Assembly: GCA_016182915.1 (NCBI GenBank)
Contig: JACPFP010000001.1
Coordinates: 1 to 53,420, forward strand
DNA: 53,420 nt
Direction of reading: 5' to 3'
Source: Candidatus Dojkabacteria bacterium
GTDB taxonomy: Bacteria > Patescibacteriota > Dojkabacteria > SC72
The notes under the pieces are model-generated. The model was not told the DNA's origin. It searched no databases and saw only the letters and a program-made list of their open reading frames with translations. Both the position numbers and the translations under genes were made by a program. Below, one piece after another: positions 2,245 through 53,420 of the stretch (its first letter is position 1; the number at the start of each line of letters is the position of its first letter).

Positions 2245-2270
2245 GTTATTTAAATTAATAATAACTAGCG

Positions 2271-4661: not shown

Positions 4662-5156
4662 ATGAAAAAAGTATTGAAAGTAATAACTGTATACGAAGAT
4701 GAAAAAACTCTTAGAAAGATATCCAAGGATATCCCCCTAGAGGAAGTGACCAGTGAGAAATTCCATAAGTTCTTGGACAACCTTAAAATAACCGCACTCA
4801 ATTCAGAACTACCACAAGGCTGGGAACCAGCAGGCCTAGCAGCAATACAGGTAGGAGAAGAAAAGAACGTCTTCATAGCAATAGATCTAGACACAGGGGA
4901 TTTTAAGGAATTCATAAACCCAAGGATAAAGACAATAGGGGAGAAGACCAGTATAGACATCGAAGGATGCCTTAGCATTCCGGACCTAACCGGATACGTT
5001 GAAAGACCAAAGAAAGTTAAAGTAACATATCTAGATAGATTTGGAAAACAACATACAGAAAGACTCTCCGGGTTTAATGCAAGAATAGTGCAACACGAAT
5101 ACGATCACTTAATAGGTGTACTATTTACAGACAAACTCGTTAATAATGGCAATTAA
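4662..5156 (+). CDS. def: Peptide deformylase
   Basis: 164 aa with the three deformylase motifs GLAAIQVG, EGCLSIP and HEYDHL. Confidence 0.9.
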   Translation: MKKVLKVITVYEDEKTLRKISKDIPLEEVTSEKFHKFLDNLKITALNSELPQGWEPAGLAAIQVGEEKNVFIAIDLDTGDFKEFINPRIKTIGEKTSIDIEGCLSIPDLTGYVERPKKVKVTYLDRFGKQHTERLSGFNARIVQHEYDHLIGVLFTDKLVNNGN

Positions 5157-6783
5157 ACACTCCCTAACAGATAAAGAAAGCAGAAAGGTAAGAAATACCA
5201 CAATACTATATATCCTTGGAATCCTCCTCATAATAGTTCTTCCCTTCCTCCTAATTAATCAGAAACCCCTTCCAAAAGAGAAAGAGGAGAGTAAGAAGGA
5301 GAAACTCTGCATAGAAGGCGAACTACAACTCCAATACACCGAACTCCTAGATAAATACGCCCAAGAGAACAACATGGAAACAATACTCGGAGAAGATACA
5401 GAGTGTTTGGCTACAGTAGCCAGAAATATCAATAATATAAACGAGTATATTAAAATCACTAACAAAATATATGTAATAGTTGGTAGATACGATACAACCC
5501 TCACAGACATACCCTCTACGAGCCTAGATACCCTCCTAACCACACAGAAATACAAAGGAACCAATATAGTATGGGACAATGATACAGACACCTTCCTCCG
5601 AACAGCCTTTGAGGGAATTGGAGTCGGACAGAGAGTCATAGAAACAGATGATATCACTAAAGAGATAGAGAAAAACAGCAATACCCTTGCCATAATCCCC
5701 TTTGAAAAGATTACCTCAACCTTTAAAGTAATCTCTATAGATGACCAAACCCCATTAAACAAAGATTTCAACACATTAAGATACCCATTAATAGACAGAT
5801 ACTGGATTAAAGGAGTGCAGGAGATAAGGGAGAAAATAGCAAGTGAAATAACCGAAGTAATACCTGTAAGCAACTACAATGCTAACAACCTTAGAAAGAT
5901 CGTATTAACAGGTTCATCTGCAGTAGGTAGTGGAATACAACAGTCACTCTATACGAATAAAGGGAAGGATTACATTACATACGACATACAAACCATAATC
6001 TCCTCTGCAGATATTGCACAGTTCAACAACGAAGCATCAATATCCTCCCCATGTATACAATCAGAAAGTACAGGAAAATACTGCAGTACTCAATCCAACC
6101 TGAGACTAATAAAAGATTTAGGTTTTGATGTTGTAGGAACAAATGGAAACCACATTATGGATATTTCATATGATACCTATGTAGATACCCTCGCGTACTA
6201 CAGAAAGAACAACCTCCCATACTACGCAGGCGGCGTAACCCTTGAAGACTCATGGACCCCAAGAGTAGTGGATGCTAAAGGACTAAAATTCTCCTTTATT
6301 GGCTTTAACTACCTATATCCCTTCAGCTACTATGCCAGTAAAACAACTGCAGGGAGTGCTAATGTAGATATGGATATACTTAAAGAAACAATTACCAAGG
6401 CTAAGAAAGCCTCAAACATAGTTATAGTAGATATGAGCTGGGGATTTGAGTATGAGGAGAAACTCGTTGCATACCAACAGGAGTATGCACAGAAGGCTCT
6501 GGAATACGGAGCAAACATAGTAATTGGAACCCAAAGTAGGATATACCAAAGTATTGAGCTATATAAGAATGGCAATGCCATCTTCTACGGACTAGGAGCA
6601 TTCCTCCCCCATACCTATTCCAACTCCCAAAGCGCCATTTACACCCTCACATACTACAACGACACCCTCATTAACATAACAATAAATCCAATAATCCTGA
6701 ACAACGGACTTGTACAGTTGGCAGAAAGTTCTCAATTGGATACAATGCTAAAGAACGTGTATAGTAATATAAAGATAAAATAA
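5146..6783 (+). CDS. CapA/PGA_cap-like metallophosphoesterase-family membrane-anchored protein
   Basis: The listed ORF is 5116-6783. ATG 5146 (MAIKH...) is preferred because it overlaps the def stop by only 11 nt. N-terminal TM helix. FNNEASIS and GTNGNHIMD resemble the CapA NLE and ANNH.D motifs. The N-terminal GD..GR motif is not obvious. Confidence 0.45.
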   Translation: MAIKHSLTDKESRKVRNTTILYILGILLIIVLPFLLINQKPLPKEKEESKKEKLCIEGELQLQYTELLDKYAQENNMETILGEDTECLATVARNINNINEYIKITNKIYVIVGRYDTTLTDIPSTSLDTLLTTQKYKGTNIVWDNDTDTFLRTAFEGIGVGQRVIETDDITKEIEKNSNTLAIIPFEKITSTFKVISIDDQTPLNKDFNTLRYPLIDRYWIKGVQEIREKIASEITEVIPVSNYNANNLRKIVLTGSSAVGSGIQQSLYTNKGKDYITYDIQTIISSADIAQFNNEASISSPCIQSESTGKYCSTQSNLRLIKDLGFDVVGTNGNHIMDISYDTYVDTLAYYRKNNLPYYAGGVTLEDSWTPRVVDAKGLKFSFIGFNYLYPFSYYASKTTAGSANVDMDILKETITKAKKASNIVIVDMSWGFEYEEKLVAYQQEYAQKALEYGANIVIGTQSRIYQSIELYKNGNAIFYGLGAFLPHTYSNSQSAIYTLTYYNDTLINITINPIILNNGLVQLAESSQLDTMLKNVYSNIKIK

Positions 6784-37882: not shown

Positions 37883-38938
37883 ATGATTAGAGTTGAAACA
37901 ATTACAGATAAAACGATTTGGGACAGTATTGCCGCCAACTCATCCCCCTCAACAATACTACAATCATGGGATTGGGGAGAGTTTCAACTTGCATATGGTC
38001 GTAAAATATGGAGACTAGGGGTATATGATAACGATACGCTTGTAGGTGTAGCCCTCACCCAACTTATTCCCACAAGATTAAGAACCCATCTCTATGTATC
38101 AAACGGCCCTGTTATTGAAAGATCAAAAATTAAAACATACCTCCCCCAGCTACTTGGCTATCTTAAGGCTTTGGCAATACAAGAGAAAGTCCACTTTGTA
38201 AGGATTGATCCTATGTACACCGAAGACGAGCAAACCCTATCCGAGCTAAAAGTGATGGGCTTGAAAGTATCCAAGACATTTACACAATCAGAAAATAAGT
38301 GGCTCCTTGATGTTACAGCAACCGAAGAGGAACTCCTTATGAATATGAGAAAAAGTACTAGATATGAGGTCAAAAGAGCAGAGAAAGAAGGAGTTAAAGT
38401 ATACTGGTCAGATAAAAAAGAGGACTATGATAAATTTGAAAAGCTCTTCCTCATAACTGCTAAGAGGCAAGACTTCATACCTCATCCTCTTGAATACTAC
38501 AGAAAGCAGTTTGAGGTTCTATCCAAGGGTGGGGTATTTAGAGCATATGTGGCACAAAAAGACGGACAAACCCTTGCAACCGCATTAATCTCATTCTATG
38601 GGGATACAGCTTCCTATTTACACGCCGCAAGCCTAAGTAATAGCGAGGTTAATAAATATAATGCACCTCCTGCTCTAGTGTGGCAGGCAATTAAAGATAC
38701 AAAGTCAATGGGTATGAAATACTTTGATTTTTGGGGAATTGCATTAACTGACGATCCAAAGCATCCCTGGGCCGGATTTACAAGATTCAAAAAAGGGTTC
38801 GGCGGCTTTCTACATAAGGTAATAAGAGCCCATGATATTCCAATCTCTTCGAGATATGCACTAATAGCCATATTAGACGCCACACGAGAGGTCTGGGGAA
38901 TATGGTATTACAAGTTGTTAAAACTTTTTAAAAAGTAG
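37883..38938 (+). CDS. FemAB-family peptidoglycan bridge-forming aminoacyltransferase
   Basis: 351 aa. FemAB-like pattern including YLHAASLSN...YNAPPALVWQAIKDTKSMGMKYFDFWGI. Confidence 0.75.
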   Translation: MIRVETITDKTIWDSIAANSSPSTILQSWDWGEFQLAYGRKIWRLGVYDNDTLVGVALTQLIPTRLRTHLYVSNGPVIERSKIKTYLPQLLGYLKALAIQEKVHFVRIDPMYTEDEQTLSELKVMGLKVSKTFTQSENKWLLDVTATEEELLMNMRKSTRYEVKRAEKEGVKVYWSDKKEDYDKFEKLFLITAKRQDFIPHPLEYYRKQFEVLSKGGVFRAYVAQKDGQTLATALISFYGDTASYLHAASLSNSEVNKYNAPPALVWQAIKDTKSMGMKYFDFWGIALTDDPKHPWAGFTRFKKGFGGFLHKVIRAHDIPISSRYALIAILDATREVWGIWYYKLLKLFKK

Positions 38939-38954: not shown

Positions 38955-38983
38955 TTGACATCTTCCACACCTGCCTATATCAT
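38955..38983 (+). promoter_or_regulatory. Sigma70-type promoter of the giant-protein locus, spaced for a leaderless start
   Basis: TTGACA (38955-38960), a 17-nt spacer, then TATCAT (38978-38983), then 6 nt to ATG 38990. Confidence 0.5.
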
Positions 38984-38989
38984 GTAATT

Positions 38990-41900
38990 ATGGTTAAAAG
39001 TCCATCTCTCCAAAGAGAAAGATTTAACAATTCAATAAGGAGATTTCTATTCATTTTTTTGGCATTAACTCCCTTCTTTGCCTATGTAATATATACTGCT
39101 ATTACCAATCCTGTTCCTAAATTCTCGTCAACTCCAACTACCTCAAGCTATATATATGAAGCGTCAAATGATCTATTTAAGGCAAAAGTTGGAAAGAGAG
39201 AGAATGGGAAACCCGATGTTCAGTTCATGTTCAATGATAATTACATTGGTTTCAGTTACCTCTCTGACTCAGCAAAAAAAGTCCAAAGCGAGAGTAGTAA
39301 CCGGCAGATACTTTTCAAGAATGTAGATAAACATATTGACCTTGAATATACGACCTTAGAAAATGGTTTGAAGGAGAACATTATAATCCGAAAACCTCAG
39401 AAGAAAACAACCTTCTATTTTGAAACTATTCTTAATGGAAATACAGTTAAAAAGCATTACCAAGACTCTGGTAGCCCTTCTTTTTATACCCCCAACGGAA
39501 ATTACCTCTTCCACATTCCCAAAGGCTTTGCTGTTGATGCAAGAGGAAAAAGGACAGATGATGTAACAATTGATGTTCTTAAACACGGAGAAAAATACTA
39601 CTTAAGAGTCACTGTCGGAAAAGAGTGGTTAAACAGTAAAAGTAGGAAGTATCCAATAAAAATAGACCCAACAACTATACATGACACTACATCAGAGTTT
39701 TCAACAGGACAGTTTAACAGCTCAAAAGATACTGGATCCGGATCAAATCCGAAGATCGAAACATACTATCAAGAAAGTACGAATGATCCGTCAACTATTG
39801 GCCTTTGGCATATGAACGAGTCTTCAGGGACCTCAATAACAGATTTCTCTGGGAAAGGAAATACAGGTACAGCAACAGGGACAACTGTAGTGGCAGGGAT
39901 ATTAGGCAACGCTCGAAGCTTTAACGGAACAACAGACAAAATAAATGTCGCTTCCGATCTGGGAGATCCAGATGCAATGACAATCTCTTTCTGGTTCAAT
40001 AAATCAAATACAAATGCGGGGGCCCAGTACATTGCAGACGGGAGGAACGGAGGTAACTGGTGGCTTATCCAGGACTACGACCTTGGAACATACTGCAGTA
40101 CAGATACGGGTGGTAATATGTGCTATGACAACAGATGCATGATTCCCTCCAGTATGCTAAAGATCAATACCTGGCAACACGTAACTGTAACAGATGAGCC
40201 ATCAGGCTGTAGGATATACCTTAATGGCAATTTAGTTGATACGGGAACAGGAGTTGATCCAAACATAGGAGCAAATATGAGGATAGGAACCCGCTACACT
40301 GATACCGTCTTTTATAACGGCTACCTTGATGAATTTGTAGTTCATAACAGGACACTTTCACCTATAGAAATAAAACGAAATGCAGAAAGGAACCCATATT
40401 CAACCTACACATCAGACGTAATCGACCTCACAACTTTCGTAACGGGATGGAACCCTATGACCTGGAGTGAACTAGGTGTAAGTACTGGTGATGGTGAAAG
40501 TGTAAGTGACAACACTTCACTTGTTTCCCAATGGAATTTTAACCAAACAAGTGGAACAACGGCAAGTAACAATGCAGGATCCTGTGGTGCAACATGTAAT
40601 GGGACACTAACAAGTTTTGCAAGTACTGGAAGCCAAGATGCAGCTCCCGATACCGGATGGACCGCAAACAATAAACGGTGGGGAGAAGGAGCATTAATGT
40701 TTGACGGCGTAGATGACAATGTTTCAGCAGGAACGGCTTCTGCCTTACGCTTCACAGGGGATTTTAGTCTTGAAGCATGGGTTAAAACTTCAGCAGACAC
40801 GGTAGGGCAAATACTTTCAAACGGGACCAATTCAGACTGGTTATACCTTCTAGGAGGATCTACTTCATTAAGCCCTACATGTAAAATATATCAAGCAAAT
40901 TCCGGAAGCGGATACCTTCAGGCAAACGGAAAAACTGATATTACGGATAATAACTGGCACTATGTAGCCTGCACACTATCTGGGACAACGCTATCCATAT
41001 ATGTTGATGGTGTACTTGAAGATACAACATCTACAACAGCAGGAACAAGAGACATTAGCACTGCCGGTACTTTCACAATTGGGAAATTTACCAATGCTAC
41101 CAGTTCATACTTCCAAGGCTCAATAGATTCAGTCCGTACTTATAGCCGTTCTCTCACAGCAGATGAAATCCTTTCAAATTACAATTCTTCAAACTTAGAA
41201 CTACAGACAAGAGTAGGATCTGACAGTACCCCAGATGATGCCAACTGGGAAGCATGGAAACCTACAACAGGAGAAAGTACTATTGATGGGTTCGATACGC
41301 CACTTTCAAGTAACCTTGTTAGCTATTGGAATATGGACGAAAGCAGTGGAACAAGGTCTGACAAATGGGGAACTAGAAACTTAACTGCGAATGGAACCGG
41401 AGGAGTAGGATCCTCAACGGGAAAAATTAACATGGCCTCAGATTTTGAATCAACCGAAAGTGATTTTCTTGAGGTTGCTGATAACACAGAACTTTCAACT
41501 GGAGACATAGACTTTACCATCTCTACCTGGGTAAAAATGGAAAGTAAACCGACGGGTTACGAGATTATAGCAAGCAAGTATGAGTCCTTTACAGTTGCAG
41601 AATATCTCCTAGGATATACCGGATCGAGTGCTAGTGATCGCTTCTATTTCCAGCTTTTTAATAGTAGTGGAGGTGCCACATGTAGTGTAGAAGCAAATAA
41701 TTTAGGTTCTCCCTCCGCTGCGACTTGGTATAACATTGTTGTATGGCACGATGCAACCGAAAATACTTGTAACATAAAGGTCAATAACGGTACAACGAAC
41801 TCTTCAGCTGAAGCTGGTGTAGTAACAGATACCAATTCAGCTTTCAGACTTGGGGCATATATTGCAGGAGGATATAACCATTTCGATGGACTCATTGATG

Positions 41901-44900
41901 AAGTGGGGTTTTGGAAAAGCGTGCTCAATTCAAACCAGTTATCAGCTCTATATGGTTCTGGATCACCCAGAAATACTCTTTATGAAACCGATATCACAAA
42001 CCTTAGTCAGCACGGAGGGATTAAACCTTCACCTGAATCTACTGTTGTACAGGAAAACTCAGCAAGCACAAAATATACAACGGGTCGATTAGGAGTGGAT
42101 AAATCAACAGTTGGTTTATGGCATTTGGATGAAACAGGGGGAACAGGAGCATACATAAAAGATAGCTCTGGTATATCTACCCTCCCATCGGCGACAGGCG
42201 GAACCATTACGACATCGGGTGGATACACGATTCACACATTTACGACGAGTGGAACATTCACTCCAAATGGAATAGGGTCAGTCGAAGTTCTAGTAGTTGG
42301 CGGTGGTGGTGGAGGTGGTTGGAGAGGTGGAGGAGGGGCTGGAGGAGTGTCATACTATCCTTCATATCTTCTCAACTCTGCATCACCAATAAGTGTGACC
42401 GTTGGCGGTGGTGGAACAGGCGATAGTGCTAACGGAGGAGGGAGAGGGACGAATGGTGGGAACTCAATATTTGATGCCATAACCGCTATTGGTGGTGGTG
42501 GTGGTGGTGGAAGCAACCTAACAGGTTTAGCTGGTGGTTCAGGTGGTGGTGGTGGTATTAATGCTTCCCAAACTGGTCCATTTAACGGTGGAGCGGGCAC
42601 AATTGGTCAAGGTAATGCAGGTGGTAATATAGTTGCTACGGCCGCAGGTCAAAGTAACGGTGGAGGTGGTGGTGGTGCAAATGCAACTGGTAGTAACTCT
42701 GCTAGTGCAACAGTTGGAGGAGCAGGTGGAAGTGGTCGCACCTTCTCGATATCTGGTGCCTCTGTAACTTATGGAGGTGGCGGTGGTGGTGGTGGTTCAG
42801 CTTCGGGGGGAAGTGGGGGAGCGGGAGGTGGAGCAAATGGTAATAGCGGTGCTGCAGCGGGTGCAAATACAGGCGGTGGTGGTGGTGGTGGTACCCTCAA
42901 TGTAGCTGGTGGAAGCGGAGGTTCTGGTATTGTGATAGTTCGTTATCCTACGACTCCAGTTACCATCGCTAACAATGCGACACCAACCAATACAACTCTT
43001 TCGCAGGGTGTTATTGAAAAATCCCGAACTTTCACAGCAAGTGCCGACAATCTCGCAACAGCTTCAACAAGTCTTGGACTTACAAATGCCTTAACTGTTG
43101 AAGCCTGGGTCTATCCAACAGGAACTGATTCGAGCTGGAACTGGATTGTTTCTCAATGGCCAAATCCAAATGGTGCGAATGCTGTCTTTAACTTAAGCTA
43201 TAGCACCACTTATAAGTTACATTTCAATGTCCAAAATTGTAGTACCTCTTTACATAATCTAACAGGAACCACTTCGCTAAAGCTTAACTCATGGAATTAT
43301 GTGGCAGCCTCCTATAATGGTACAGATGGAAATATAACGTTATATGTAAATGGAGTCCAAGATTCCTCCACCAATGGAACGGCAGGAACAGTTTGTAATG
43401 CTTCCCAGCCAATAATGTTTGGGAAGGCACCATTTGATGCAGTAGAGAGTCTCAAAGGTAGAATTGATGAAGTTCGTATTAGTAGTGCAGTTCGAAGCGC
43501 TGAAGAAATAGCTGAAAGCTATAGAAAGGGACAGAACCATTACATAAATAAAACAATAAGTAGTACAGATATGGCTTCAAAAGGTTCCTTCCCTTTCTAT
43601 ATTGCGGCAGATAGACCCGGTACATATATAGAATCTATAATAGGAGAATCAGCCTTTGCAAACTACCAAGCAGATGCAAACACCCTATCCCTACTGCATT
43701 TAGACGACTATAGATACAAAGATAGCAGTGGAACTGGTCTTAATGGGCTAAGTAACTATAATGGGATTGAGTACGGGATTAGAAGTTCAAACCTAACTAT
43801 CATTGCAAACCAGTGGAACGGAGCTGCTAACGATGGAGAACTCGATATTACATGTACAGGTGGAGATGCCACATGTGCGATAGTAACACATGATGGTGTA
43901 ACTCTTTCAACTCCCTCTATTAATTTCGGTGTGGCAATGATTGAGAACGCAGCAATTTCTGCTTTCATAATGTATTCACCGTCCCTTTCAGGGCAAGGGA
44001 TAACCCCTTATGCAAATAACAGTAACAACTATATTGGAGTGAGATATAGTGGAGGAGTATGGCAGTATGACAATAACGTTTCCTGGGTTACATTTACACC
44101 GACATCAGCAAATATCCTAGTTGCATCACTAACGACAGGCAACCCAACTACTACAAACCTACTCCAATTAGATACACACTCCATACCTACACAAGGAACA
44201 GTAGGAAAGGGAAGAAGTTTTGATGGAACAAATGATGAAATAGTGTTGGCGGGTTCGTCAACACTATTTTCAACTGATACGTACACTACCAGCGCATGGA
44301 TATACCCAACGGTTACAGGATCAGCAAATCACTTCATTTTAGACAATAGAGATGCTTCATTAGATGGGACTATTATGTATATATCATCTAATGACACTTT
44401 AAGATGTACATACAACACAACTAGTGCGACAACCACCCTCGTAGTAACAGTTAAGCAATGGTACTATATAACATGTGTTTCGACAGGCTCCACACTTAAT
44501 ACCTATATAAATGGATCCTTAGCCAATTCTGTCGCAATATCTGGAAGTATTTCAGTTACAAGTGATGCCAAGATAGGAATACGTAGCTTTAGCACACCAA
44601 CAAGCCCCTTTAGTGGAATCATAGATGAGTTCAGATTCGATAATATAGCTCGCAGTGCCTCTGAAGTCAGACAAGCATACGAAGCTGGTCTAAGAGCACA
44701 TCAAATAACTATAGACTTTGGTGCCAAACTAGATAGTGGAAACCTAATTGCAAATACCAGTGATCTCTCCTTCACTGTAGATGCTACATACTACGGTCTA
44801 CAAAACAAAGGAGATAAAATATTCTCTGGAGAGAAGATTATCATTAGAGAGAACTACAATGGAACAGAATACAAGGCTCAAGGAACTGTAACAGCTGTAA

Positions 44901-44947
44901 ACAAGAGTACTGGTGCTATAACCGTATCCTCATGGGACACACTGTGA
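38990..44947 (+). CDS. Giant (1985 aa) N-terminally membrane-anchored surface protein: multiple LamG/concanavalin-like modules plus a central glycine-rich module
   Basis: TM segment FLFIFLALTPFFAYVIYTAI. Repeated modules start with (L)WH(M/L)(N/D)E.SG...D.SG.GN.GT and end with G.IDE(V/F)R. These strings are typical of Laminin_G_3-type modules. The Gly-rich block lies at 42191-42949. Confidence 0.85.
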   Translation: MVKSPSLQRERFNNSIRRFLFIFLALTPFFAYVIYTAITNPVPKFSSTPTTSSYIYEASNDLFKAKVGKRENGKPDVQFMFNDNYIGFSYLSDSAKKVQSESSNRQILFKNVDKHIDLEYTTLENGLKENIIIRKPQKKTTFYFETILNGNTVKKHYQDSGSPSFYTPNGNYLFHIPKGFAVDARGKRTDDVTIDVLKHGEKYYLRVTVGKEWLNSKSRKYPIKIDPTTIHDTTSEFSTGQFNSSKDTGSGSNPKIETYYQESTNDPSTIGLWHMNESSGTSITDFSGKGNTGTATGTTVVAGILGNARSFNGTTDKINVASDLGDPDAMTISFWFNKSNTNAGAQYIADGRNGGNWWLIQDYDLGTYCSTDTGGNMCYDNRCMIPSSMLKINTWQHVTVTDEPSGCRIYLNGNLVDTGTGVDPNIGANMRIGTRYTDTVFYNGYLDEFVVHNRTLSPIEIKRNAERNPYSTYTSDVIDLTTFVTGWNPMTWSELGVSTGDGESVSDNTSLVSQWNFNQTSGTTASNNAGSCGATCNGTLTSFASTGSQDAAPDTGWTANNKRWGEGALMFDGVDDNVSAGTASALRFTGDFSLEAWVKTSADTVGQILSNGTNSDWLYLLGGSTSLSPTCKIYQANSGSGYLQANGKTDITDNNWHYVACTLSGTTLSIYVDGVLEDTTSTTAGTRDISTAGTFTIGKFTNATSSYFQGSIDSVRTYSRSLTADEILSNYNSSNLELQTRVGSDSTPDDANWEAWKPTTGESTIDGFDTPLSSNLVSYWNMDESSGTRSDKWGTRNLTANGTGGVGSSTGKINMASDFESTESDFLEVADNTELSTGDIDFTISTWVKMESKPTGYEIIASKYESFTVAEYLLGYTGSSASDRFYFQLFNSSGGATCSVEANNLGSPSAATWYNIVVWHDATENTCNIKVNNGTTNSSAEAGVVTDTNSAFRLGAYIAGGYNHFDGLIDEVGFWKSVLNSNQLSALYGSGSPRNTLYETDITNLSQHGGIKPSPESTVVQENSASTKYTTGRLGVDKSTVGLWHLDETGGTGAYIKDSSGISTLPSATGGTITTSGGYTIHTFTTSGTFTPNGIGSVEVLVVGGGGGGGWRGGGGAGGVSYYPSYLLNSASPISVTVGGGGTGDSANGGGRGTNGGNSIFDAITAIGGGGGGGSNLTGLAGGSGGGGGINASQTGPFNGGAGTIGQGNAGGNIVATAAGQSNGGGGGGANATGSNSASATVGGAGGSGRTFSISGASVTYGGGGGGGGSASGGSGGAGGGANGNSGAAAGANTGGGGGGGTLNVAGGSGGSGIVIVRYPTTPVTIANNATPTNTTLSQGVIEKSRTFTASADNLATASTSLGLTNALTVEAWVYPTGTDSSWNWIVSQWPNPNGANAVFNLSYSTTYKLHFNVQNCSTSLHNLTGTTSLKLNSWNYVAASYNGTDGNITLYVNGVQDSSTNGTAGTVCNASQPIMFGKAPFDAVESLKGRIDEVRISSAVRSAEEIAESYRKGQNHYINKTISSTDMASKGSFPFYIAADRPGTYIESIIGESAFANYQADANTLSLLHLDDYRYKDSSGTGLNGLSNYNGIEYGIRSSNLTIIANQWNGAANDGELDITCTGGDATCAIVTHDGVTLSTPSINFGVAMIENAAISAFIMYSPSLSGQGITPYANNSNNYIGVRYSGGVWQYDNNVSWVTFTPTSANILVASLTTGNPTTTNLLQLDTHSIPTQGTVGKGRSFDGTNDEIVLAGSSTLFSTDTYTTSAWIYPTVTGSANHFILDNRDASLDGTIMYISSNDTLRCTYNTTSATTTLVVTVKQWYYITCVSTGSTLNTYINGSLANSVAISGSISVTSDAKIGIRSFSTPTSPFSGIIDEFRFDNIARSASEVRQAYEAGLRAHQITIDFGAKLDSGNLIANTSDLSFTVDATYYGLQNKGDKIFSGEKIIIRENYNGTEYKAQGTVTAVNKSTGAITVSSWDTL
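42191..42949 (+). other. Glycine-rich module, copy 1 (within the giant ORF)
   Basis: GGTITTSGGYTIHTFTTSGTFTPNG..VEVLVVGGGGGGGW, then multiple poly-Gly strands, ending GGSGGSGIVIVRYP. Runs of GGT codons occur, for example at 42491-42505 and 42875-42892. Confidence 0.7.
44641..44938 (+). repeat. Conserved 3' module shared by the two giant ORFs (copy 1)
   Basis: Aligns without gaps to 53123-53420 (offset 8482). About 20 differences in 44641-44797, then zero differences in 44798-44938 (141 nt), by hand comparison. Confidence 0.85.
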
Positions 44948-47823
44948 ATGCAGATGTATTTAAGTGGCAGAGAGAGTACTGGCCTGTACTAAACAATACT
45001 CTTTCTACACATATGGATGGTATTACACAGTTAACCTTAAGAGTTACAGATGGGAGTGAAGGAAGAAGTATATGGATCGATGATCTTAGATCTGTAGATA
45101 ACTATCTAACTAACCCTGCTGGTTCAACCATTACCTCCTCACTTGGAAACAGATACATGCAATATAGAGTGATAAATACATCCGTTGACCCGGCAGTCTC
45201 TAGTGCCGTGACAGTGGTAAACATGGACTACAACCTCAACATGGCACCAAATATCCCTACGTTAGATTCACCTAGCAACCTTTCTACAGGACAAGTATTT
45301 ACACCGCAGTTAAAAACCACCGCAATAGATAGTGATTTAGATTATGTGAGATACAAGATTGAATTATGTCAGAATCCACACATGACAATAGGCTGCCAGA
45401 CCTTTGATCAAACTTCTTCGCAGACAGGATGGAGTGGGCAGAACACAGAAACTTCAACTGCATATACTTCTGGTACGCAAGCCACCTATACCCTTCAAAC
45501 CAACCTTACCCAGGGCACAACCTACTACTGGAGATCATATGCAATTGACCCTGCAGGATTAAATACTTGGAGTTCAACACAAACAACCCCATATTCATTT
45601 GTAGTCAACGCAATTTCCAGATCTACTCAGAATAATGAATACGAGAGATTTATAGCGCGAAGAGAAAGCTCATATCCTTCAACCTCAGTCGGTTGGGCAA
45701 GTATTACGGGATCCGCAGAAACAGGGACGACAGCATCCACAAATGGTTGGATTGCGGGATCAAACTTCACAGTAGGAGATAAATACCTCATACTTGTATG
45801 GGGATCACACCAGACGGATAGCAGCTCATCCCGAAGCGGAATTAGAGTAAAGCATGGGTCAACATCGTTTACAGAGTCAGAGGCAATAGAGATAACTAAC
45901 CAGACTTCAAGTTCATATAAAACACCATATTTCTGGTTTACAGTCTGGGATGGACTAAATGAAAATATTGAAGCAGAAATCTACTGGAACGGTGGAGCCC
46001 CTGGAACAGAAGCGAGGGTTGAGGATGTAACTTTAATCGCTTTAAATGTAACAGACCTTATAACGGCTAACAATCTTAAATATAATATTTCGAATGTAGG
46101 TGGACCACTTGACCAAACATTCACAAGCAAATCGGTAGTTTCATTCACACCAGCTACTAACAATGACCTCTGGTGGATAATGGGATACTCAAAGGCAAAT
46201 TTCACACAATATAACAGTGATGACTACCAAGCAAGATTGAACATAAACGGGAGTATTAAATCAACTATGACAACCTCTGTTATATATGATTCAGATACCC
46301 CAGTATATGGAATTGGAACTGTAGCTCAACTCCCTAATTCTGTTCAAAATATTGACCTTGAATTAAGAGAAAGCGGTGATAATCACGACTGGGACTCAGC
46401 AGGAGTATTTGCTTTAAGACTAAACTCATTTGACAGCTTCATGGCCGATCACACGGCAGGAAACGGACCAACAATGTCAACACCAAGCGATTGGGTAGAG
46501 CAGAACTCCCTTGATATCCTTCTTCGAAAAACAGGCTCATTTATAACCGCTTCAGGTGCTATTGTTGACGACGCTGGCGCAAGAGTAATTAACAGACTTC
46601 AAAGCTCTGACATAAACATAACTGATGATATTGGAGGATGGAGACAGCAAGCAGGGGATAGGCTCGCTGTAACCTTGGGTGACATTAATATCGGTTATAC
46701 AAGTGGTTTAAAAAATATAGATATGGACTCCCAAACGACCCTCGCAGGCAGTGCTTCACTAAGTGATACATGGACTGTTGGATTCTCTTTGGAAAGAGCC
46801 GGCTCAGGACCAAACCTAGACCTACCGGTGAACTCAGCGACAAATCAAAAACTGAAACCACAACTCAGAGTTACATCGATAGATCCAGACTCCGATACCC
46901 TAAAATATAAAATTGATTTCTGTACGGATCTAGCAATGACCCTAAACTGTCAGACTTTCAATCAGGTATCATCTCAAACCGGATGGAGTGGACAGAACTC
47001 ACACTCAAGCACACGTTATACATCAGGAACTCAGGCTACATACACAATTCAATCTGATCTTAGCATTAACTCAACATACTACTGGCGAGCATACTCAATA
47101 GACCCCGACGGAACAAATACATTTACACCTGCCAGTCCCGTACACTCATTTACAACAACCCAAACTCCATACGCTCCAACCCTTATCGAAATTGAAGGGG
47201 TAACAAACCCTACAGAGGTAAGCGACATTACCCCTGAAATCAGTGCTGTACACACCGACCCGGATGGAGATAGTGCCAACTTTATACAAATTCAAGTTAA
47301 CACAGCTTCCGACTTTACTGGAACATCCAAATGGAATACGGGCCAGTTAGCCATGACAACAACAGCAAATGGAGTTCGTTCACCCCTTATTATTTATGGT
47401 GGCAGTGCGCTAAACCTACAAGCACAAACATACTACGTAAGGGTCAAATTCTGGGATGTAAACGGAGCAGAAAGCCCATGGTCAACAACCGCACAATTCA
47501 CTATGGATACTTTAGACCCTCCAACAGGTTGCCATTTAGTCGATAGTGATTTAACAGACACATCAATTGTAATAAGGTGGAACGATATAAGTACGATTGA
47601 AGGTGGATATAGAATCCAAAAAAGTACAAACGGAGGAACATTCTCAACCCTTATAGACAAAGCCGCAGACTCAGTAACTCACACTGATACAATAGTTCCC
47701 GGATTTACATACTCATATAGAATAGCCGCATCACTCTCCGGACTCTATTCCACATACTGTACAACATCTACCTCAGACGCCAACCCAGGAAACATCAGGT
47801 TTGAGGGGATAATATTCCAGTAA
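44932..47823 (+). CDS. FN3-like/beta-sandwich repeat protein (963 aa) with no export signal; possibly the C-terminal continuation of the preceding giant ORF
   Basis: Overlaps the upstream ORF by 16 nt in the -1 frame. Two homologous Cys-pair modules (C..P.MT.GCQTFDQ.SSQTGWSGQN...YYWR.Y.IDP). A terminal FN3-like segment IVIRWNDIS...GFTYSYRIAA. No N-terminal hydrophobic segment. Confidence 0.6.
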   Translation: MGHTVNADVFKWQREYWPVLNNTLSTHMDGITQLTLRVTDGSEGRSIWIDDLRSVDNYLTNPAGSTITSSLGNRYMQYRVINTSVDPAVSSAVTVVNMDYNLNMAPNIPTLDSPSNLSTGQVFTPQLKTTAIDSDLDYVRYKIELCQNPHMTIGCQTFDQTSSQTGWSGQNTETSTAYTSGTQATYTLQTNLTQGTTYYWRSYAIDPAGLNTWSSTQTTPYSFVVNAISRSTQNNEYERFIARRESSYPSTSVGWASITGSAETGTTASTNGWIAGSNFTVGDKYLILVWGSHQTDSSSSRSGIRVKHGSTSFTESEAIEITNQTSSSYKTPYFWFTVWDGLNENIEAEIYWNGGAPGTEARVEDVTLIALNVTDLITANNLKYNISNVGGPLDQTFTSKSVVSFTPATNNDLWWIMGYSKANFTQYNSDDYQARLNINGSIKSTMTTSVIYDSDTPVYGIGTVAQLPNSVQNIDLELRESGDNHDWDSAGVFALRLNSFDSFMADHTAGNGPTMSTPSDWVEQNSLDILLRKTGSFITASGAIVDDAGARVINRLQSSDINITDDIGGWRQQAGDRLAVTLGDINIGYTSGLKNIDMDSQTTLAGSASLSDTWTVGFSLERAGSGPNLDLPVNSATNQKLKPQLRVTSIDPDSDTLKYKIDFCTDLAMTLNCQTFNQVSSQTGWSGQNSHSSTRYTSGTQATYTIQSDLSINSTYYWRAYSIDPDGTNTFTPASPVHSFTTTQTPYAPTLIEIEGVTNPTEVSDITPEISAVHTDPDGDSANFIQIQVNTASDFTGTSKWNTGQLAMTTTANGVRSPLIIYGGSALNLQAQTYYVRVKFWDVNGAESPWSTTAQFTMDTLDPPTGCHLVDSDLTDTSIVIRWNDISTIEGGYRIQKSTNGGTFSTLIDKAADSVTHTDTIVPGFTYSYRIAASLSGLYSTYCTTSTSDANPGNIRFEGIIFQ

Positions 47824-47828
47824 TATAA

Positions 47829-50800
47829 ATGAAATTGACACTCATAAAAAACATAAATATGATTAAAGATGTGGACATAAAAAAGATAGCCAGTAAATAT
47901 AGAAAGACAATTGAAACAACCTTTCTGGGAGTACTATTTGTACTTCCGATTCTCCTCTTCTACATTAAGTATAACTACGAATACTATCCAACCTTTAAAA
48001 CTACGGATAATGGAGGGTATACAGTAGCAAATAGCACATACTCTTCAAACCTTAACCTCTCTAAGGAAAATCAACCTATTATAAGTTTTAAGCTAACAGA
48101 TCATACCTCCAATATTGAGCTTCAGTTGAAAAGCAAGGATAAATATGAGGCAAAGCTAGATAGAAAGAAAAATAAAATTGTATATACGAACAAGGGATCA
48201 GATAAAGTCAGAATTGAGTATACATCCCTTAACAATGGAATTAAAGAAGATATAATATTCCAAGAACCTCCAAGAGGTTATGTAATGCCTTTCACACTGA
48301 AAACAGAAAGCATCCTCATGCCACAGAAAATAGGTGACTACATGCAACCAACCTTCTACGACAGCAAAGGAAACTACCAATTTCATCTCGAAAAACCCTT
48401 CGCCATTGATGCTGCGAACCATAGAAGTGATGATTTCTCATATACAATTAAAAAGGTAGAAGGAGGATATGAGGTGAGGTTAAATTATGATTATAAATGG
48501 TTAAGAAGCTCGAATACTAAATATCCAGTCGTAATAGACCCAACGATACTCCATGATACAACAGCTGAATTTGCAACAGGACAATTTAACAGATCAAAAG
48601 ATGTAGGCTCAGGATCAAGTCCAAAGATAGAAACATACTACCAAGAAAGTACTAATGATTCACATACCGTAGGATTATGGCACTTAAATGAAGCATCTGG
48701 ATCCTCGATAACAGATTTTTCGGGGAGGGGCAACACCGGTACAGCAACTGGAACAACCGTAGTAACAGGGATATTAGATAATGCCCGAAGCTTTAACGGA
48801 TCAAGCGATTACGTCAGCCTTGGAAGTTCAACTGACCTCAGGGTTGAAACAGATAGTTTTACACTCGAGACATGGATTAAACCAGCTACAAATCTTGCGA
48901 CAGGCACCAGAGGTGCAATTCTTGCTTACTATACCCCTGGGTGGATATTGGATGTTGTAGATGACGCGGATGTAGAAGGATATCGTTTTTACAATGGATC
49001 TACTTCCTACAAAGTAAATGCTCCCAATAATTTATTATCACTAGATTGGACACACTTCGCCGTAACTTGGGATAGGGGAACATCTCTCCTTACCATTTAC
49101 CTAAATGGAGAGGCACAGCAAACTTTTTCAGTAACATCAGTAACCACATCTACAAATCCCCTTCTAATGGGGAAACGAACCGATGGAAATTACTTCAATG
49201 GGATAATAGATGAAGTTCGGATTAGTAATATAGCCCGTACTCCAGAGGAGATTAAACAAACAGCTCAAAGAAGACCCTCTTCTACTTACACTTCAGAGGT
49301 TATAGACCTTACAAACCAAGCATTAGCATGGAATGCCTTCGGATGGGAAGAGAATGGTGTAGGGACAGGGGACGGAGAAACATTATTTAGTACAGCAAAC
49401 TTAATTGCTAAATGGAATTTTAATGAGCTAAGTGGAACTACGTCCAATAATGATGCAGAAGGAACAAGCTGTGGAGGTACTCCAGCAAACTGTGATGGAA
49501 CACTTACGGGCTTTGACTCTACAGCTTCACAAGATGCAGATCCTGATTCCTCATGGACAGCAAACAACAAGCGGTGGGGAGCCGGAGCACTGCAGTTTGA
49601 TGGGATAAATAGCTATGTTTCTTGCACAGATATCAACTGTGGTGGGATAAGCGCACTTGATATGAGCACAAGATTAACTACCTATTCCTGGGGAACCTGG
49701 ATAAATACCATTCAAACACCAAGTGCATCAACCGATATTATTAGTAAACGTAATGGGACAACACCTGCCGCGGGATACACTATGTATCTTGCAACCTCTG
49801 GGCTTATAGCTTGCCAAATAGCTGATGGAACCGCAAGTGCCTACACGGTATCGCTTAACAAGATTAATGATGGACTATGGCACTACATAGTATGCACTAA
49901 TGATGGAACGAATATTAAAATTTATGTGGATGGAAAGTTTAATAATTTAGCATCAACCAGTTCCGTTACAGGCAGCATTAACACGTCAGAAAACTTCTCG
50001 ATAGGTAGAAACAATAATGGCACATATTTTAATGGTATTATTGATTCTGTAGCAATTTTCTCGCGATCTCTCCCGGCTTCCGAGATACTTAGCAACTATA
50101 ATGCATCAAATATTGAATTACAAACAAGAGTTGGAAGTGACACTTCTCCAGATGATGGTAATTGGGAAGCCTGGAAGCCAACAACCGGTGAGACGGCTAT
50201 CGACACCTACGATGGGACATATCAATACAATACAACAGACAGTAATCTTGTAGCATACTATCCAATGGATGAATCAACTAATAACACCTGTGCCGGCGGT
50301 GAGGATATTTGTGACAAAAAAAATAGCTATCATGGCACTGAAACCAGTACAGATATAGTTAGCGGAAAATACGGTAATGCACGAGGTTTTGATAGTATAA
50401 ATGACAATATAATACTTTCAAGTGAGGGTAGTAATTTATCCTTAAACAACTATTCTGTAAGTGCCTGGGTCAATAAATTAACTACCTCAACAGGTACTCA
50501 CATAATCGTAGACAATAGAGATTCTGGAAGTGATGGTTGGATGCTATGGGCAACATCTTCTAATTTTGTATGTAGATATAACGCAACAGATGTTACAGGT
50601 ACAACAACTGTAAGTTTTGGAGTTTGGTACCACGTAGGCTGTATTTCAGATGGCTCTACTTTAAAAATATATGTTAATGGATTACTGGAAAATTCAGGTG
50701 CGATTACCGGTAATATTGCAGAGACAACGAACGCCTCTATAGGAGGGCGAAGTTTTTCTACTCCGAATAACAATTTTCCAGGGAATATAGATGAAGTTCG

Positions 50801-53420
50801 TATTTACAACACAAATATATCTGCGACCCTGTTCAGACAGCAATTTATTGAAGGCTCAACAAACGCGACCACATTACTCCCATCAAATGACTCTATAGCC
50901 AAAGTTGATGGGACATCAAGTCAAAAAATCAATATCGGAAATCCAGTAGTTGACGCCAGTACAATAGCTCTTTGGCATTTGGATGAAACAGGAGGTACAG
51001 GAGCGTATCTCAAAGATTCGACCTCCAATGCAAACAATGGTACTCCAACAGGAACAACAATAGCAAAAGGTATATCAGGCAAGGCAAGAACTTTTAATGG
51101 AACAAGTGATTATATTGACGCAGGATCAAGTTCAACCCTAAAGTTTACTCTCACAGACAATTTTTCAATATCAGGGTGGGTAAATGTTGTCTCAGATTCA
51201 ACCGAAAGAGTAATAGTTGGTAATGGATGGTCTACTTCTGGCTATCATCTCCGAATGACGTCAGGAAATAAGCTTAGATTTATAATTATTCATGATGGAT
51301 CAAATTATAAATATACAGATAGTTCTGACGTAATTACCTCTGGCTGGCATTATGTAGTGGCCACATGGAATGGGAGTTCAACAACCCTTTACGTTGACGG
51401 TAAACAAACTGGAAGTCAAATAACTGTCGGTACTGTAACCAATATTACTAGTTCACTTAACTTTTATGTTGGTAATGTATCCGGACAAACAGCCTATTTC
51501 AAAGGTACTATTGATGAGCTAAGGGTTCATAATGTAGCACTAACGGCAGAAGAGATTGCAGAATCGTACCGTATGGGAAGTAACCACTATATAAATAAAA
51601 CCATCACTTCAACAAACCTTTCGTCAAAATCCTCCCTACCTTTCTACATCGCAGCGGATAGACCTGGTACATATCTTCAAACAACAGTTGGGGAATCTGC
51701 CTATGCTAACTACCAGCCGGATGCAAATACTGTAGGTCTTTGGCATTTGGACGAGATAGGAGGAAGTATTTCAAGCCTTAAAGATAGCAGTGGGAATAGT
51801 TATGATGGAAATGCCCTTTATGCCACTGGAGGAACAATAACATACTCAGGTGGTTATACAATACATACTTTTACTTCCAGTGGTTCTTTTGTTACCTCCG
51901 GATCTAGAAATGTAGAAGTATTAGTGGTGGGAGGAGGAGGAGGAGGAGGAGGGACTAATGGTGGTGGAGCAGTAGGAGGTGGTGGGGGTGGGGGTCAAGT
52001 TGCATATAACGCAAGTTATACCGCAAATGGTGCTATTACTGTTACCGTAGGAGCCGCTGGAGCTCGTGGACAATGTGGTAACGTTGGCGATGGATGCCCC
52101 TATGCAACGGGAACAGCAGGTAGCAATGGAGGAAGTTCTATTTTTGGGTCGATTACCGCAGTTGGTGGTGGTGGTGGTGGATTAGGTAACGGTGGATCTG
52201 GATTAAGCGGAGCTAGTGGTGGTGGTGGTGGTACATACTTTGGAGCAGGAGGTTCTGCAACTGCCGGGTACTCTGGAGGACAAGGTTCTGACTGTAATAC
52301 TCCATGTAGAGCAGGCGGTGGTGGTGGTGCAGGTGCTGCAGGAGCGTCTGGCGCAACAACTGGTAACGGTGGTAATGGTGTAGCAAATTCAATCTCAGGG
52401 GTAAGTACATACTATGGAGGTGGAGCTGCAGGAAATGGATACTCAAATAATAACGGAGCAGCTGGACTTGGTGGTGGTGCAACTGGTTATGTTTGCTCCG
52501 TTAATGGATCAACAGGTTGTACAAATGGAGCTAGTGGTACAGCAAATACTGGTGGTGGTGGTGCTGGTGCAAGTGGAAGTTCGCGTGGATGGGGTGGGCT
52601 TGGTGGTTCTGGTATTGTTATTGTGAGGTACCCAACTTCGTATACCGGAACAGAAGTAGAAGGAAAAGTTGGAATAGGAAGGAGTTTTAATGGAACAAGT
52701 GATGGAATAGTACAAAGCAGTGGAAGCAATGTAAACGTAACTGGCGATATAACAGTTGAAGCCTGGATAAATCCTTCAACCCTAACAGGAAGCAATAATA
52801 CGATAGTCCACAAAGACTCTCAATACAGCCTCACAATTCGAACCACAGATAATTATGTCGCATGGGCAGACAGCTCAAACTGGAGTTATGCAAATTTCGG
52901 TTTTTCAGATATAGGACTACAACTTAATAAGTGGCAACATATTGCAGCTACTAAAACAGGAGGCGTAGTTAAAATATATCTTAACGGCGTGGAAAAGGTA
53001 TCTAAATCATTTGGAAGTGCTTTAACTAGTACATCAAATGTCATGGCGATTGGTTGCTACGCAGGTGCAACCAGCTGTTCAAGTCACTATTTCCCCGGAT
53101 CTATTGATGAAGTACGTATTAGTAATATAGCTCGCAATGCCTCTGAAATCAGACAAGCATATGAAGCTGGCCTGAGATCTCATCAAATAACTATAGACTT
53201 CGGTGCTAAACTGGATAGTGGAAACCTCATTGCGGATACGAGCGATCTCTCTTTCACCGTGGATGCTACATACTATGGACTACAAAACAAAGGAGATAAA
53301 ATATTCTCTGGAGAGAAGATTATCATTAGAGAGAACTACAATGGAACAGAATACAAGGCTCAAGGAACTGTAACAGCTGTAAACAAGAGTACTGGTGCTA
53401 TAACCGTATCCTCATGGGAC
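47829..53420 (+). CDS. Second giant LamG/glycine-rich surface protein, paralogue of 38990-44947, 3'-partial (open to the window end, at least 1864 codons); not in the supplied ORF track
   Basis: ATG 47829. I translated 47829 to about 48850, about 49460-49620, 51822-52860 and the last 300 nt by hand, all in the same frame (47829+3n) with no stop. TM segment TFLGVLFVLPILLFYI. The N-terminal block YPVVIDPTILHDTTAEFATGQFNRSKDVGSGSSPKIETYYQESTND matches the first giant ORF. The track lists no stop-terminated + ORF there. Confidence 0.8.
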   Translation, partial: MKLTLIKNINMIKDVDIKKIASKYRKTIETTFLGVLFVLPILLFYIKYNYEYYPTFKTTDNGGYTVANSTYSSNLNLSKENQPIISFKLTDHTSNIELQLKSKDKYEAKLDRKKNKIVYTNKGSDKVRIEYTSLNNGIKEDIIFQEPPRGYVMPFTLKTESILMPQKIGDYMQPTFYDSKGNYQFHLEKPFAIDAANHRSDDFSYTIKKVEGGYEVRLNYDYKWLRSSNTKYPVVIDPTILHDTTAEFATGQFNRSKDVGSGSSPKIETYYQESTNDSHTVGLWHLNEASGSSITDFSGRGNTGTATGTTVVTGILDNARSFNGSSDYVSLGSSTDLRVETDSFTLETWIKPATNLATGTRGAILAYYTPGWILDVVDDADVEGYRFYNGSTSYKVNAPNNLLSLDWTHFAVTWDRGTSLLTIYLNGEAQQTFSVTSVTTSTNPLLMGKRTDGNYFNGIIDEVRISNIARTPEEIKQTAQRRPSSTYTSEVIDLTNQALAWNAFGWEENGVGTGDGETLFSTANLIAKWNFNELSGTTSNNDAEGTSCGGTPANCDGTLTGFDSTASQDADPDSSWTANNKRWGAGALQFDGINSYVSCTDINCGGISALDMSTRLTTYSWGTWINTIQTPSASTDIISKRNGTTPAAGYTMYLATSGLIACQIADGTASAYTVSLNKINDGLWHYIVCTNDGTNIKIYVDGKFNNLASTSSVTGSINTSENFSIGRNNNGTYFNGIIDSVAIFSRSLPASEILSNYNASNIELQTRVGSDTSPDDGNWEAWKPTTGETAIDTYDGTYQYNTTDSNLVAYYPMDESTNNTCAGGEDICDKKNSYHGTETSTDIVSGKYGNARGFDSINDNIILSSEGSNLSLNNYSVSAWVNKLTTSTGTHIIVDNRDSGSDGWMLWATSSNFVCRYNATDVTGTTTVSFGVWYHVGCISDGSTLKIYVNGLLENSGAITGNIAETTNASIGGRSFSTPNNNFPGNIDEVRIYNTNISATLFRQQFIEGSTNATTLLPSNDSIAKVDGTSSQKINIGNPVVDASTIALWHLDETGGTGAYLKDSTSNANNGTPTGTTIAKGISGKARTFNGTSDYIDAGSSSTLKFTLTDNFSISGWVNVVSDSTERVIVGNGWSTSGYHLRMTSGNKLRFIIIHDGSNYKYTDSSDVITSGWHYVVATWNGSSTTLYVDGKQTGSQITVGTVTNITSSLNFYVGNVSGQTAYFKGTIDELRVHNVALTAEEIAESYRMGSNHYINKTITSTNLSSKSSLPFYIAADRPGTYLQTTVGESAYANYQPDANTVGLWHLDEIGGSISSLKDSSGNSYDGNALYATGGTITYSGGYTIHTFTSSGSFVTSGSRNVEVLVVGGGGGGGGTNGGGAVGGGGGGGQVAYNASYTANGAITVTVGAAGARGQCGNVGDGCPYATGTAGSNGGSSIFGSITAVGGGGGGLGNGGSGLSGASGGGGGTYFGAGGSATAGYSGGQGSDCNTPCRAGGGGGAGAAGASGATTGNGGNGVANSISGVSTYYGGGAAGNGYSNNNGAAGLGGGATGYVCSVNGSTGCTNGASGTANTGGGGAGASGSSRGWGGLGGSGIVIVRYPTSYTGTEVEGKVGIGRSFNGTSDGIVQSSGSNVNVTGDITVEAWINPSTLTGSNNTIVHKDSQYSLTIRTTDNYVAWADSSNWSYANFGFSDIGLQLNKWQHIAATKTGGVVKIYLNGVEKVSKSFGSALTSTSNVMAIGCYAGATSCSSHYFPGSIDEVRISNIARNASEIRQAYEAGLRSHQITIDFGAKLDSGNLIADTSDLSFTVDATYYGLQNKGDKIFSGEKIIIRENYNGTEYKAQGTVTAVNKSTGAITVSSWD
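51822..52634 (+). other. Glycine-rich module, copy 2
   Basis: ATGGTITYSGGYTIHTFTSSGSFVTSGSRNVEVLVVGGGGGGGGT...GGLGGSGIVIVRYP. A (GGA)7 run lies at 51930-51950. Confidence 0.7.
53123..53420 (+). repeat. Conserved 3' module shared by the two giant ORFs (copy 2, truncated by the window end)
   Basis: See 44641-44938. The terminal 141 nt (53280-53420) are identical to 44798-44938. Confidence 0.85.

Follow-up and report, generated by a model that had tools for sequence, protein, structure and literature searches.

The stretch of Candidatus Dojkabacteria DNA analyzed here (53,420 nucleotides (nt), an entire contig, referred to below as the window) ends in a 14.4-kb locus of giant LamG-domain proteins, in which a first-pass annotation made from the letters alone had recognized three consecutive genes on the plus strand. 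Coordinates and lengths of the three open reading frames (ORFs) were reproduced (Table 1): ORF1 encodes 1985 amino acids (aa) and is directly preceded, as reported, by a FemAB gene (37883..38938); ORF2 encodes 963 aa; and ORF3 runs without a stop codon to the last base of the window, giving 1864 aa from the ATG at 47829. The count of genes did not stand. The stretch holds two old paralogous genes rather than three, called here gene A (ORF1 plus ORF2) and gene B (ORF3), and ORF2 is the frameshifted tail of ORF1, lacking an anchor, a signal peptide and a promoter of its own.

The joining of ORF1 to ORF2 was established from homologues in which the two parts are continuous. A junction query, consisting of the last 108 aa of ORF1 joined to ORF2, found 211 homologues, carrying Patescibacteria names wherever they were named at all, and a single alignment crossed the ORF1/ORF2 junction in 71 of the 121 homologues among the matches listed. 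The junction-spanning homologues read SSWD-SGSTFPSGG[Y/F]-TVNA.VFKWQREYW, whereas in the window SSWD is followed by TL and a stop in one frame, and the -1 frame gives MGH-TVNADVFKWQREYW. Only 2 nt stand at this point in the window, compared to 30 in the relatives, and the deleted junction is TGGGAC-ACACTGTG at the DNA level. The closest species representative, a metagenome-assembled genome labelled Saccharibacteria (L002), has a single 2807-aa ORF, which matches aa 9-1983 of ORF1 and then the whole of ORF2 in collinear order and whose junction is intact. Judged by the names of the homologues and by this closest syntenic genome, the organism belongs to the CPR/Patescibacteria. The identity of ORF2 to this orthologue is 53-78% in 100-aa windows, compared to 23-54% for the LamG stalk. 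Judged by these alignments, ORF1 and ORF2 are one ancestral gene, predicted to encode about 2953 aa if repaired.

The lesion lies within a connector of about 215 aa, with which many shorter members of the family naturally end and which has no match in Pfam, even in its repaired version. Gene A does not contain this connector in uninterrupted form, since 10 codons are gone and the frame is changed. As assembled, the anchored stalk encoded by gene A would lose its tail and head. A hydropathy scan of ORF2 found no hydrophobic segment, no signal peptide was found, and the promoter scan of the window detected no promoter-like site ahead of its start. Programmed -1 ribosomal frameshifting was also considered as a way of joining the two frames. 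The overlap, TCATGGGACACACTGTGA, contains no X XXY YYZ heptamer, and programmed frameshifting is therefore unlikely; the homologues, moreover, are in one frame. The GTG taken as the ORF2 start by the gene caller (P0002) overlaps the ORF1 stop codon as GTGA (44944-44947), and this arrangement could allow termination-reinitiation, the product of which would be without any export signal.

ORF2 shows no decay, all 963 of its codons being open, and the lesion in gene A is therefore recent, polymorphic or an error. This leads to the most serious of the alternatives, namely that the cell does not normally carry the frameshift, which would instead belong to a minority allele or be an error of assembly or consensus calling among the many repeats of the region, and that gene A is made as an intact protein of about 2950 aa. 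Besides the open and well conserved ORF2, the position of the break speaks for such an event: on one side of it lies a 141-nt exact repeat and on the other a 78-aa tract identical to the continuation of the paralogue, and assembly graphs branch at such places. An intact junction occurs in the same data set (in the partial protein P0011, see below), and the genes of relatives are frequently fragmented in other assemblies. On the other hand, a k-mer assembler would not invent a 28-nt deletion, so that some reads, we infer, must carry it; the deletion is outside any homopolymer; and an independent frameshifting deletion in the connector of a Collierbacteria contig makes real lesions plausible. 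We therefore treat an artefact or minority allele as a possibility to be reckoned with, on balance a somewhat doubtful one.

The Collierbacteria lesion (GW2011_GWB1_44_6; L003 840-900) is a separate deletion of about 40 nt that removes 13 aa between NLTL and DDLRS. Several database homologues begin in the middle of the connector, including P0005 (which starts with MFKWQREYW), P0029, P0018 and P0101, and fragmentation in assemblies is frequent for genes of the giant LamG family. Such genes are easy to mis-count, since they are cut into apparent pseudogenes by frameshifts and by contig breaks at repeats.

The second incomplete reading frame has a different origin. ORF3 lacks a stop codon only because the contig ends inside the 141-nt repeat: nucleotides 53280-53420 are 100% identical to 44798-44938, with the first mismatch immediately upstream (offset 141). 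This repeat belongs to the common C-terminal module that had already been recognized in ORF1 and ORF3, which was found again as 298 nt at 93% identity. A likely continuation was located in P0011, a partial protein from a contig of 315585 nt. Its first 33 aa are the same as the end of ORF3, its junction is intact (SGSTVPPSGY) and is followed by 78 aa identical to ORF2, after which the sequence departs into a shorter, headless tail. P0011 is probably the continuation of gene B, which would bring the protein to a total of about 2420-2435 aa, and the gene B connector is intact only if this assignment is correct.

Overall protein identity between ORF1 and ORF3 is only about 38%. The 141 exactly matching nt and 78 identical aa at the junction stand out against this level and suggest a recent gene conversion between the paralogues across the connector. 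One might go further and imagine that the connector serves as a recombination joint, at which gene conversion swaps tails and heads between stalks, or switches a copy off and on, thereby providing surface variation in an episymbiont. This idea, which we think improbable, is based on the meeting of variable stalks and variable tails at the connector, the most conserved domain across the family, and on the 28-nt deletion of gene A being flanked by perfect homology to an intact copy.

Table 1. Features of the giant-protein locus and examples of gene starts across the window, in window coordinates.
Feature	Position	Strand	Details
Gene A promoter, TTGACA-17-TATCAT	38955..38983	+	11/12 consensus match, 6 nt before ATG
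Gene A 5' part (ORF1), membrane-anchored LamG stalk	38990..44947	+	collinear with aa 9-1839 of the 2807-aa L002 orthologue; stops 2 codons past the frame change
Gene A transmembrane anchor (aa 20-38), after basic 19-aa tail	39047..39103	+	best 19-aa hydropathy window 2.11; AlphaFold2 (AF2) helix aa 5-39
Gene A N-domain (aa 45-270), all-beta	39122..39799	+	profile search; no Pfam model
Gene A LamG1	39803..40354	+	PF13385, 68.2 bits
Gene A LamG2	40532..41149	+	PF13385, 82.7 bits
Gene A LamG3	41327..41914	+	PF13385, 54.1 bits
Gene A glycine-rich module (aa 1085-1319)	42242..42946	+	PF21722, E 4.7e-21
Gene A LamG4	42977..43519	+	PF13385, 98.5 bits
Gene A LamG5	44192..44644	+	PF13385, 71.9 bits
Gene A connector, first half (ORF1 aa 1886-1983)	44645..44938	+	homologue alignments continue unbroken into the ORF2 N-terminus
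141-nt exact repeat, copy 1	44798..44938	+	ends exactly at the frame change; inside 298-nt 93% repeat D1
Gene A 3' part (ORF2), distal tail	44932..47823	+	full-length match to L002 orthologue aa 1847-2807 at 63.6% identity
Frameshift site	44936..44947	+	about 28 nt (10 codons, SGSTxPxxG[Y/F]) missing relative to homologues; ORF1 stop TGA 44945-44947, ORF2 in -1 frame
Gene A connector, second half (ORF2 aa 4-112)	44941..45267	+	spanning homologue alignments
Ig-like module 1 (ORF2 aa 105-230)	45244..45621	+	weak Ig_J_second and NAR2 Ig-like matches; repeated at aa 625-750
Predicted single-chain triple jelly-roll head, C1q/TNF-like (ORF2 aa 225-635)	45604..46836	+	AF2 and Foldseek
Ig-like module 2 (ORF2 aa 625-750)	46804..47181	+	internal repeat of aa 105-230
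Ig_Rha78A_N module (ORF2 aa 752-861)	47185..47514	+	PF25788, E 9.4e-13
FN3-like module (ORF2 aa 862-933)	47515..47730	+	fn3 20.1 bits, below cut-off; PDB FN3 chains E 3.3e-5
Gene B (ORF3)	47829..53420	+	open to contig end; 1864 aa from ATG 47829, 1850 aa from GTG 47871
Gene B promoter, TTGACA-17-TATGAT	47835..47863	+	11/12 match, 7 nt before GTG 47871
Gene B transmembrane anchor (aa 28-46)	47910..47966	+	hydropathy 2.16
Gene B N-domain	47991..48671	+	alignment to gene A N-domain; profile match P0122
Gene B LamG1	48675..49223	+	PF13385, 84.6 bits
Gene B LamG2	49413..50063	+	PF13385, 73.6 bits
Gene B LamG3	50259..50804	+	PF13385, 76.4 bits
Gene B LamG4	50970..51533	+	PF13385, 90.8 bits
Gene B glycine-rich module (aa 1350-1601)	51876..52631	+	PF21722, E 6.6e-17
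Gene B LamG5	52659..53123	+	PF13385, 82.3 bits
Gene B connector, first half	53124..53420	+	last 141 nt (53280-53420) are repeat copy 2; contig ends there
Starts with a -10-like box (examples)	4009, 4662, 10425(-), 14352, 23094, 27346, 28213(-), 28979, 32238, 34026, 35410, 38990, 47871		

The two proteins follow one plan, much as the first-pass annotation had described it. Each has a basic N-terminal tail and a single strongly hydrophobic segment (aa 20-38 in ORF1, aa 28-46 in ORF3), and both contain the motif YP(I/V)(K/V)IDPT..HDTT.EF.TGQFN.SKD.GSGS in the N-domain that follows. The DNA similarity of the N-terminal blocks is likewise real, with the identity somewhat lower than the 78% first given (75-77% over 286-300 nt). 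A profile of the N-domain matched 6465 cluster representatives, with ORF1 and ORF3 as the top matches; almost always the match was N-terminal in a protein of 1800-5600 aa. The architecture can thus no longer be regarded as rare, since its N-domain heads thousands of giant proteins. The N-domain has no match in Pfam, and none among PDB sequences when searched either as a profile or as single sequences; ORF1 and the glycine-rich module likewise yielded nothing useful against PDB sequences. The same N-domain is found at the head of Rhs/YD proteins of monoderm bacteria, including Peribacillus (E 1e-20) and Solirubrobacterales. This use by Rhs-type giants argues that the N-domain probably serves giant exported proteins in general as a base or anchor.

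The chain of LamG modules proposed for both proteins was confirmed by profile searches. In whole-protein Pfam scans Laminin_G_3 reached E values of 2.6e-107 (ORF1) and 8.6e-125 (ORF3), covering five stretches in each, and all ten modules passed when scanned singly, with 54-98 bits against a gathering cut-off of 27.6. The motifs that had been said to open and close each module do exist, but the word "each" went too far: the strict opening motif LWH[LM][DN]E..G occurs twice in ORF1 and three times in ORF3, the strict closing motif G.IDE(V/F)R shows the same counts, and one or two of the strict opening motifs stand before the glycine-rich module rather than before a LamG module. Each protein has, as claimed, one glycine-rich module, with single matches to Gly_rich_2 (PF21722) of 76.3 bits in ORF1 and 62.7 bits in ORF3 (cut-off 24.3). 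It precedes LamG4 in ORF1 and follows LamG4 in ORF3. The gene A version matches the phage families phrog_2295 (E 9.4e-53) and phrog_863, the latter of the tail category (E 5.7e-7), and a tblastn search of GenBank phages with this module found nothing. About 145 aa of ORF1 between a conserved linker and LamG5 (aa 1590-1734; 43757-44191) have no counterpart in ORF3 and align poorly to the L002 orthologue; there is no Pfam match for ORF1 aa 1505-1740.

The tail encoded by ORF2 carries a second kind of domain. AF2 modeling of aa 225-635, with 11 homologues in the alignment, produced three jelly rolls at high confidence (predicted local distance difference test (pLDDT) 89.9, predicted template modeling score 0.90), arranged in the model as in the trimers of C1q and TNF proteins. 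The best Foldseek matches in the PDB spanned about 400 residues at template modeling scores (TM) of 0.56-0.61 and included an engineered single-chain C1q head (5hzf, E 6e-14) and a single-chain APRIL-BAFF-BAFF protein (TM 0.61). Among viral structures the best match was a Caudovirales protein (TM 0.78-0.80), with C1q-domain proteins and minor tail proteins of phages ranking next. The head has no Pfam match, the C1q and TNF families included, even at E values up to 10, and weak mutual similarity of its units was detected only between units 2 and 3. The engineered proteins resemble the modeled head in packing three jelly rolls as a trimer-like unit, whereas in the window the three units occur naturally in one chain and there is no collagen stalk. 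Such a natural single-chain C1q/TNF-like head, as predicted here, is new with this analysis, as are the corrected gene model and, at the connector, the repeat together with the putative tract of gene conversion.

Most homologues of the head are stand-alone secreted proteins. Two of them (546 and 567 aa) have prepilin N-termini and are encoded between PilC (T2SSF) and PilM in a type IV pilus operon (L020 94-7317, Logan SRR22388039), with an N_methyl pilin gene downstream of the prepilin-fused heads. Among the matches listed, a C1q-like head was seen in few relatives of the giant proteins, namely P0004, P0006, P0008, P0076 and the L002 orthologue.

Each of the two genes has its own sigma-70-type promoter sequence. 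The site that had been noted upstream of the locus, TTGACA-17-TATCAT, was located directly before ORF1, and its layout is kept in L002, where the gene A orthologue is preceded by TTGACA-17-TAATAT-6-ATG and the gene B orthologue by TTGACA-17-TATTAT-7-ATG. By analogy with this layout, the true start of gene B is probably GTG 47871. Among the promoter matches that face gene starts, those of genes A and B are the two best. A third 11/12 match, TTAACA-16-TATAAT, lies inside ORF3 (48229-48256) and is probably due to chance, because the total number of promoter-like sites in the window is not above the shuffled expectation. The distance of only 6-7 nt between promoter and start codon implies leaderless mRNAs for both genes. 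Upstream of many other genes, too, a -10-like TAnnAT box stands 6-7 nt from the start codon (Table 1), and almost no gene in the window has a Shine-Dalgarno-like sequence, which suggests that leaderless transcripts are widespread in this organism. A start-proximal -10 box is therefore a habit of the genome, and the giant genes differ in having the best -35 boxes.

Taken together, we propose that genes A and B encode giant type-II membrane-anchored extracellular fibres with the N-terminus inside and the C-terminus outside. Each protein would consist of a short basic cytoplasmic tail, one transmembrane helix and a juxtamembrane beta N-domain, followed by a stalk in which five lectin-type jelly rolls (LamG/ConA-like) are joined by one glycine-rich module of a type common with phage proteins. 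Past the stalk would come the conserved connector and then a distal Ig/FN3-like tail, which in gene A would additionally bear the single-chain triple jelly-roll head. With each gene expressed from its own promoter, the lectin-like stalk and distal head would bind, multivalently, glycans or other surface receptors of a substrate or of a host cell. Our best, if unproven, reading of this architecture is that of an adhesin or receptor-binding fibre, and it fits the occurrence of the head on pilins, the phage-like modules, and the fast evolution and rearrangement of the stalk. The suggestion of attachment made in the first-pass annotation thus gains from the new domain evidence, while still being inferential, and agrees with speculation in the literature that lectin-like surface proteins of Patescibacteria mediate attachment (PMC12911398). 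Envelope proteins with lectin-like and FN3 domains are essential for the epibiotic growth of a Saccharibacterium (PMC10633639). We consider the explanation as a whole, two paralogous giant anchored fibres with gene A split and gene B cut by the contig end, to be probable with modest confidence.

Several observations weigh against it. The lack of decay in ORF2 means that gene A may be intact in most cells, and the link between P0011 and ORF3 is one of protein identity. LamG folds also occur in enzymes and in structural proteins. No family member has a characterized function, and what the Patescibacteria literature offers on LamG and giant proteins is general speculation. The AF2 model of the N-domain is of low confidence (pLDDT 62), with meaningless Foldseek matches. 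Finally, the head found no sequence match in GenBank phages (tblastn) or in IMG/VR (profile scan), so that its phage link is structural only.

Among other functions, a structural role in the envelope deserves the most attention, with the proteins forming a surface coat or a cell-wall-linked spacer tied to FemAB and to the nearby penicillin-binding protein (PBP), FtsW and MurG. FemAB stands ahead of the locus in L002 as it does in the window, the peptidoglycan genes lie upstream, the N-domain is probably a generic base module, and strong promoters would suit an abundant protein. We nevertheless think it unlikely. Among 19 loci, adjacency to FemAB was found in only one close relative, so that what might have been taken for a family-wide linkage is local synteny, and functional coupling to FemAB is unsupported beyond that relative. 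Both giant genes have promoters of their own, the head is also found on pilins, and the rapid divergence of the stalk between orthologues (23-54% identity), with rearrangement of its modules, is what one would sooner expect of interaction proteins.

Enzymes of the ConA-like glucanase superfamily that degrade glycans or capture nutrients are a much poorer candidate, and a very improbable one in our view. The name of the Pfam clan does include glucanases, the head has weak structural matches to accessory domains of glycosidases, and phage-borne ConA-like genes were read as glycoside hydrolases in one paper. Against this, searches of ORF1-3 with Pfam and NCBIfam found no catalytic family, all matches being to non-catalytic LamG, Ig, FN3 and glycine-rich modules.

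That the tandem arrangement is a chimera of assembly, as the ending of the contig in a repeat of its own interior might suggest, is barely credible, given that the order RecG-SpoU-FemAB-giant A-giant B recurs in the independent assembly L002 and that each of the two genes has its nearest match in the L002 gene at the same position. In L002 the FemAB protein is 78% identical, and the 2807-aa ORF is followed by a second giant gene like ORF3. The two window genes are 50% and 49% identical to their counterparts in this genome, compared to 40% and 41% for the other copy, and for this reason the tandem pair is old and no assembly chimera, in line with the first-pass view of the pair as old paralogues rather than an assembly duplicate.

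The family to which the pair belongs is large and centred on the Patescibacteria, where its usual annotation is merely "LamG domain-containing protein". Such giants have 1600-3200 aa and also occur as tandem copies. Those in Microgenomates, Collierbacteria, Roizmanbacteria, Dojkabacteria, Moraniibacteria and metagenome-assembled Saccharibacteria share the N-domain, LamG chain, Gly_rich_2 module, connector and Ig_Rha78A_N tail. The locus described here differs from them in that gene A is split inside the connector, and in that the order of glycine-rich and LamG modules differs between the window paralogues and from the orthologue. How ultrasmall Patescibacteria recognize and hold their hosts is little understood beyond type IV pili, and this very large family accounts for a sizeable part of small genomes. 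The locus offers several handles on it: a domain map, an anchor module common to other giant exported proteins, a modeled head that is also found on pilins, and a conserved connector.

Known systems resemble the locus in part. Phage receptor-binding and tail-fibre proteins are similar with respect to the glycine-rich module, the head structure and weak Ig-like matches to the tip attachment protein J. In contrast to phage fibres, the window proteins have an N-terminal membrane anchor, and their genes are located among chromosomal housekeeping genes with no phage genes nearby, a context on which a prophage origin was rejected. Peptidase_S74 is an endosialidase chaperone domain typical of phage tail spikes. 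In one related locus (L001 241-3238, JGI 3300021075), a gene for a 380-aa N-domain and partial LamG protein is overlapped by a 332-aa ORF with Peptidase_S74, and then comes a further giant gene with the N-domain (at least 2778 aa). The Rhs/YD polymorphic toxins, exemplified by the Peribacillus muralis locus L011, are giant exported proteins that likewise start with the N-domain (E 1e-20); unlike them, ORF1-3 contain no RHS repeats, DUF6531, PT-HINT or toxin tip according to Pfam. The Rhs/YD gene with the N-domain in P. muralis DSM 16288 (L011 9623-18016) has an in-frame stop at codon 263, inside the N-domain.

Other modes of surface display found no counterpart. A search for LPXTG-type anchoring detected neither an LP.[TSA]G motif nor a C-terminal hydrophobic segment, and one for adhesins of the RTX/type I secretion system (T1SS) kind detected no RTX repeats, the single GGxGxD, inside a glycine-rich module, being a chance occurrence. 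The TafC family of fimbrial proteins (NF052521) was rejected, with 139.9 and 129.3 bits against a cut-off of 410 and matches to LamG parts only. Large LamG-bearing surface proteins are also found in DPANN archaea. LamG proteins with signal peptides in Nanohaloarchaeota have been proposed to function in cell-cell contact (PMC9563170). The Giant1-5 proteins of Apilactobacillus kunkeei, another symbiont with a small genome, are reported to be extracellular proteins of several thousand aa that are encoded by consecutive genes and occupy a notable share of that genome (PMC12863079). They resemble the window proteins in their tandem giant layout and differ in domain content and anchoring.

Elsewhere in the window, two ORFs have no Pfam match, a 438-aa ORF (6799-8115, plus strand) that follows a PGA_cap capsule-synthesis gene (5116..6783) and a 321-aa ORF (31152-32117, minus strand). 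The region 9-3940 at the start of the contig may mark one border of an integrated mobile element: a gene with a Toprim domain (9..2114) and one for a large serine recombinase (2271..3929) adjoin a tRNA-His gene there (3864-3940, minus strand).

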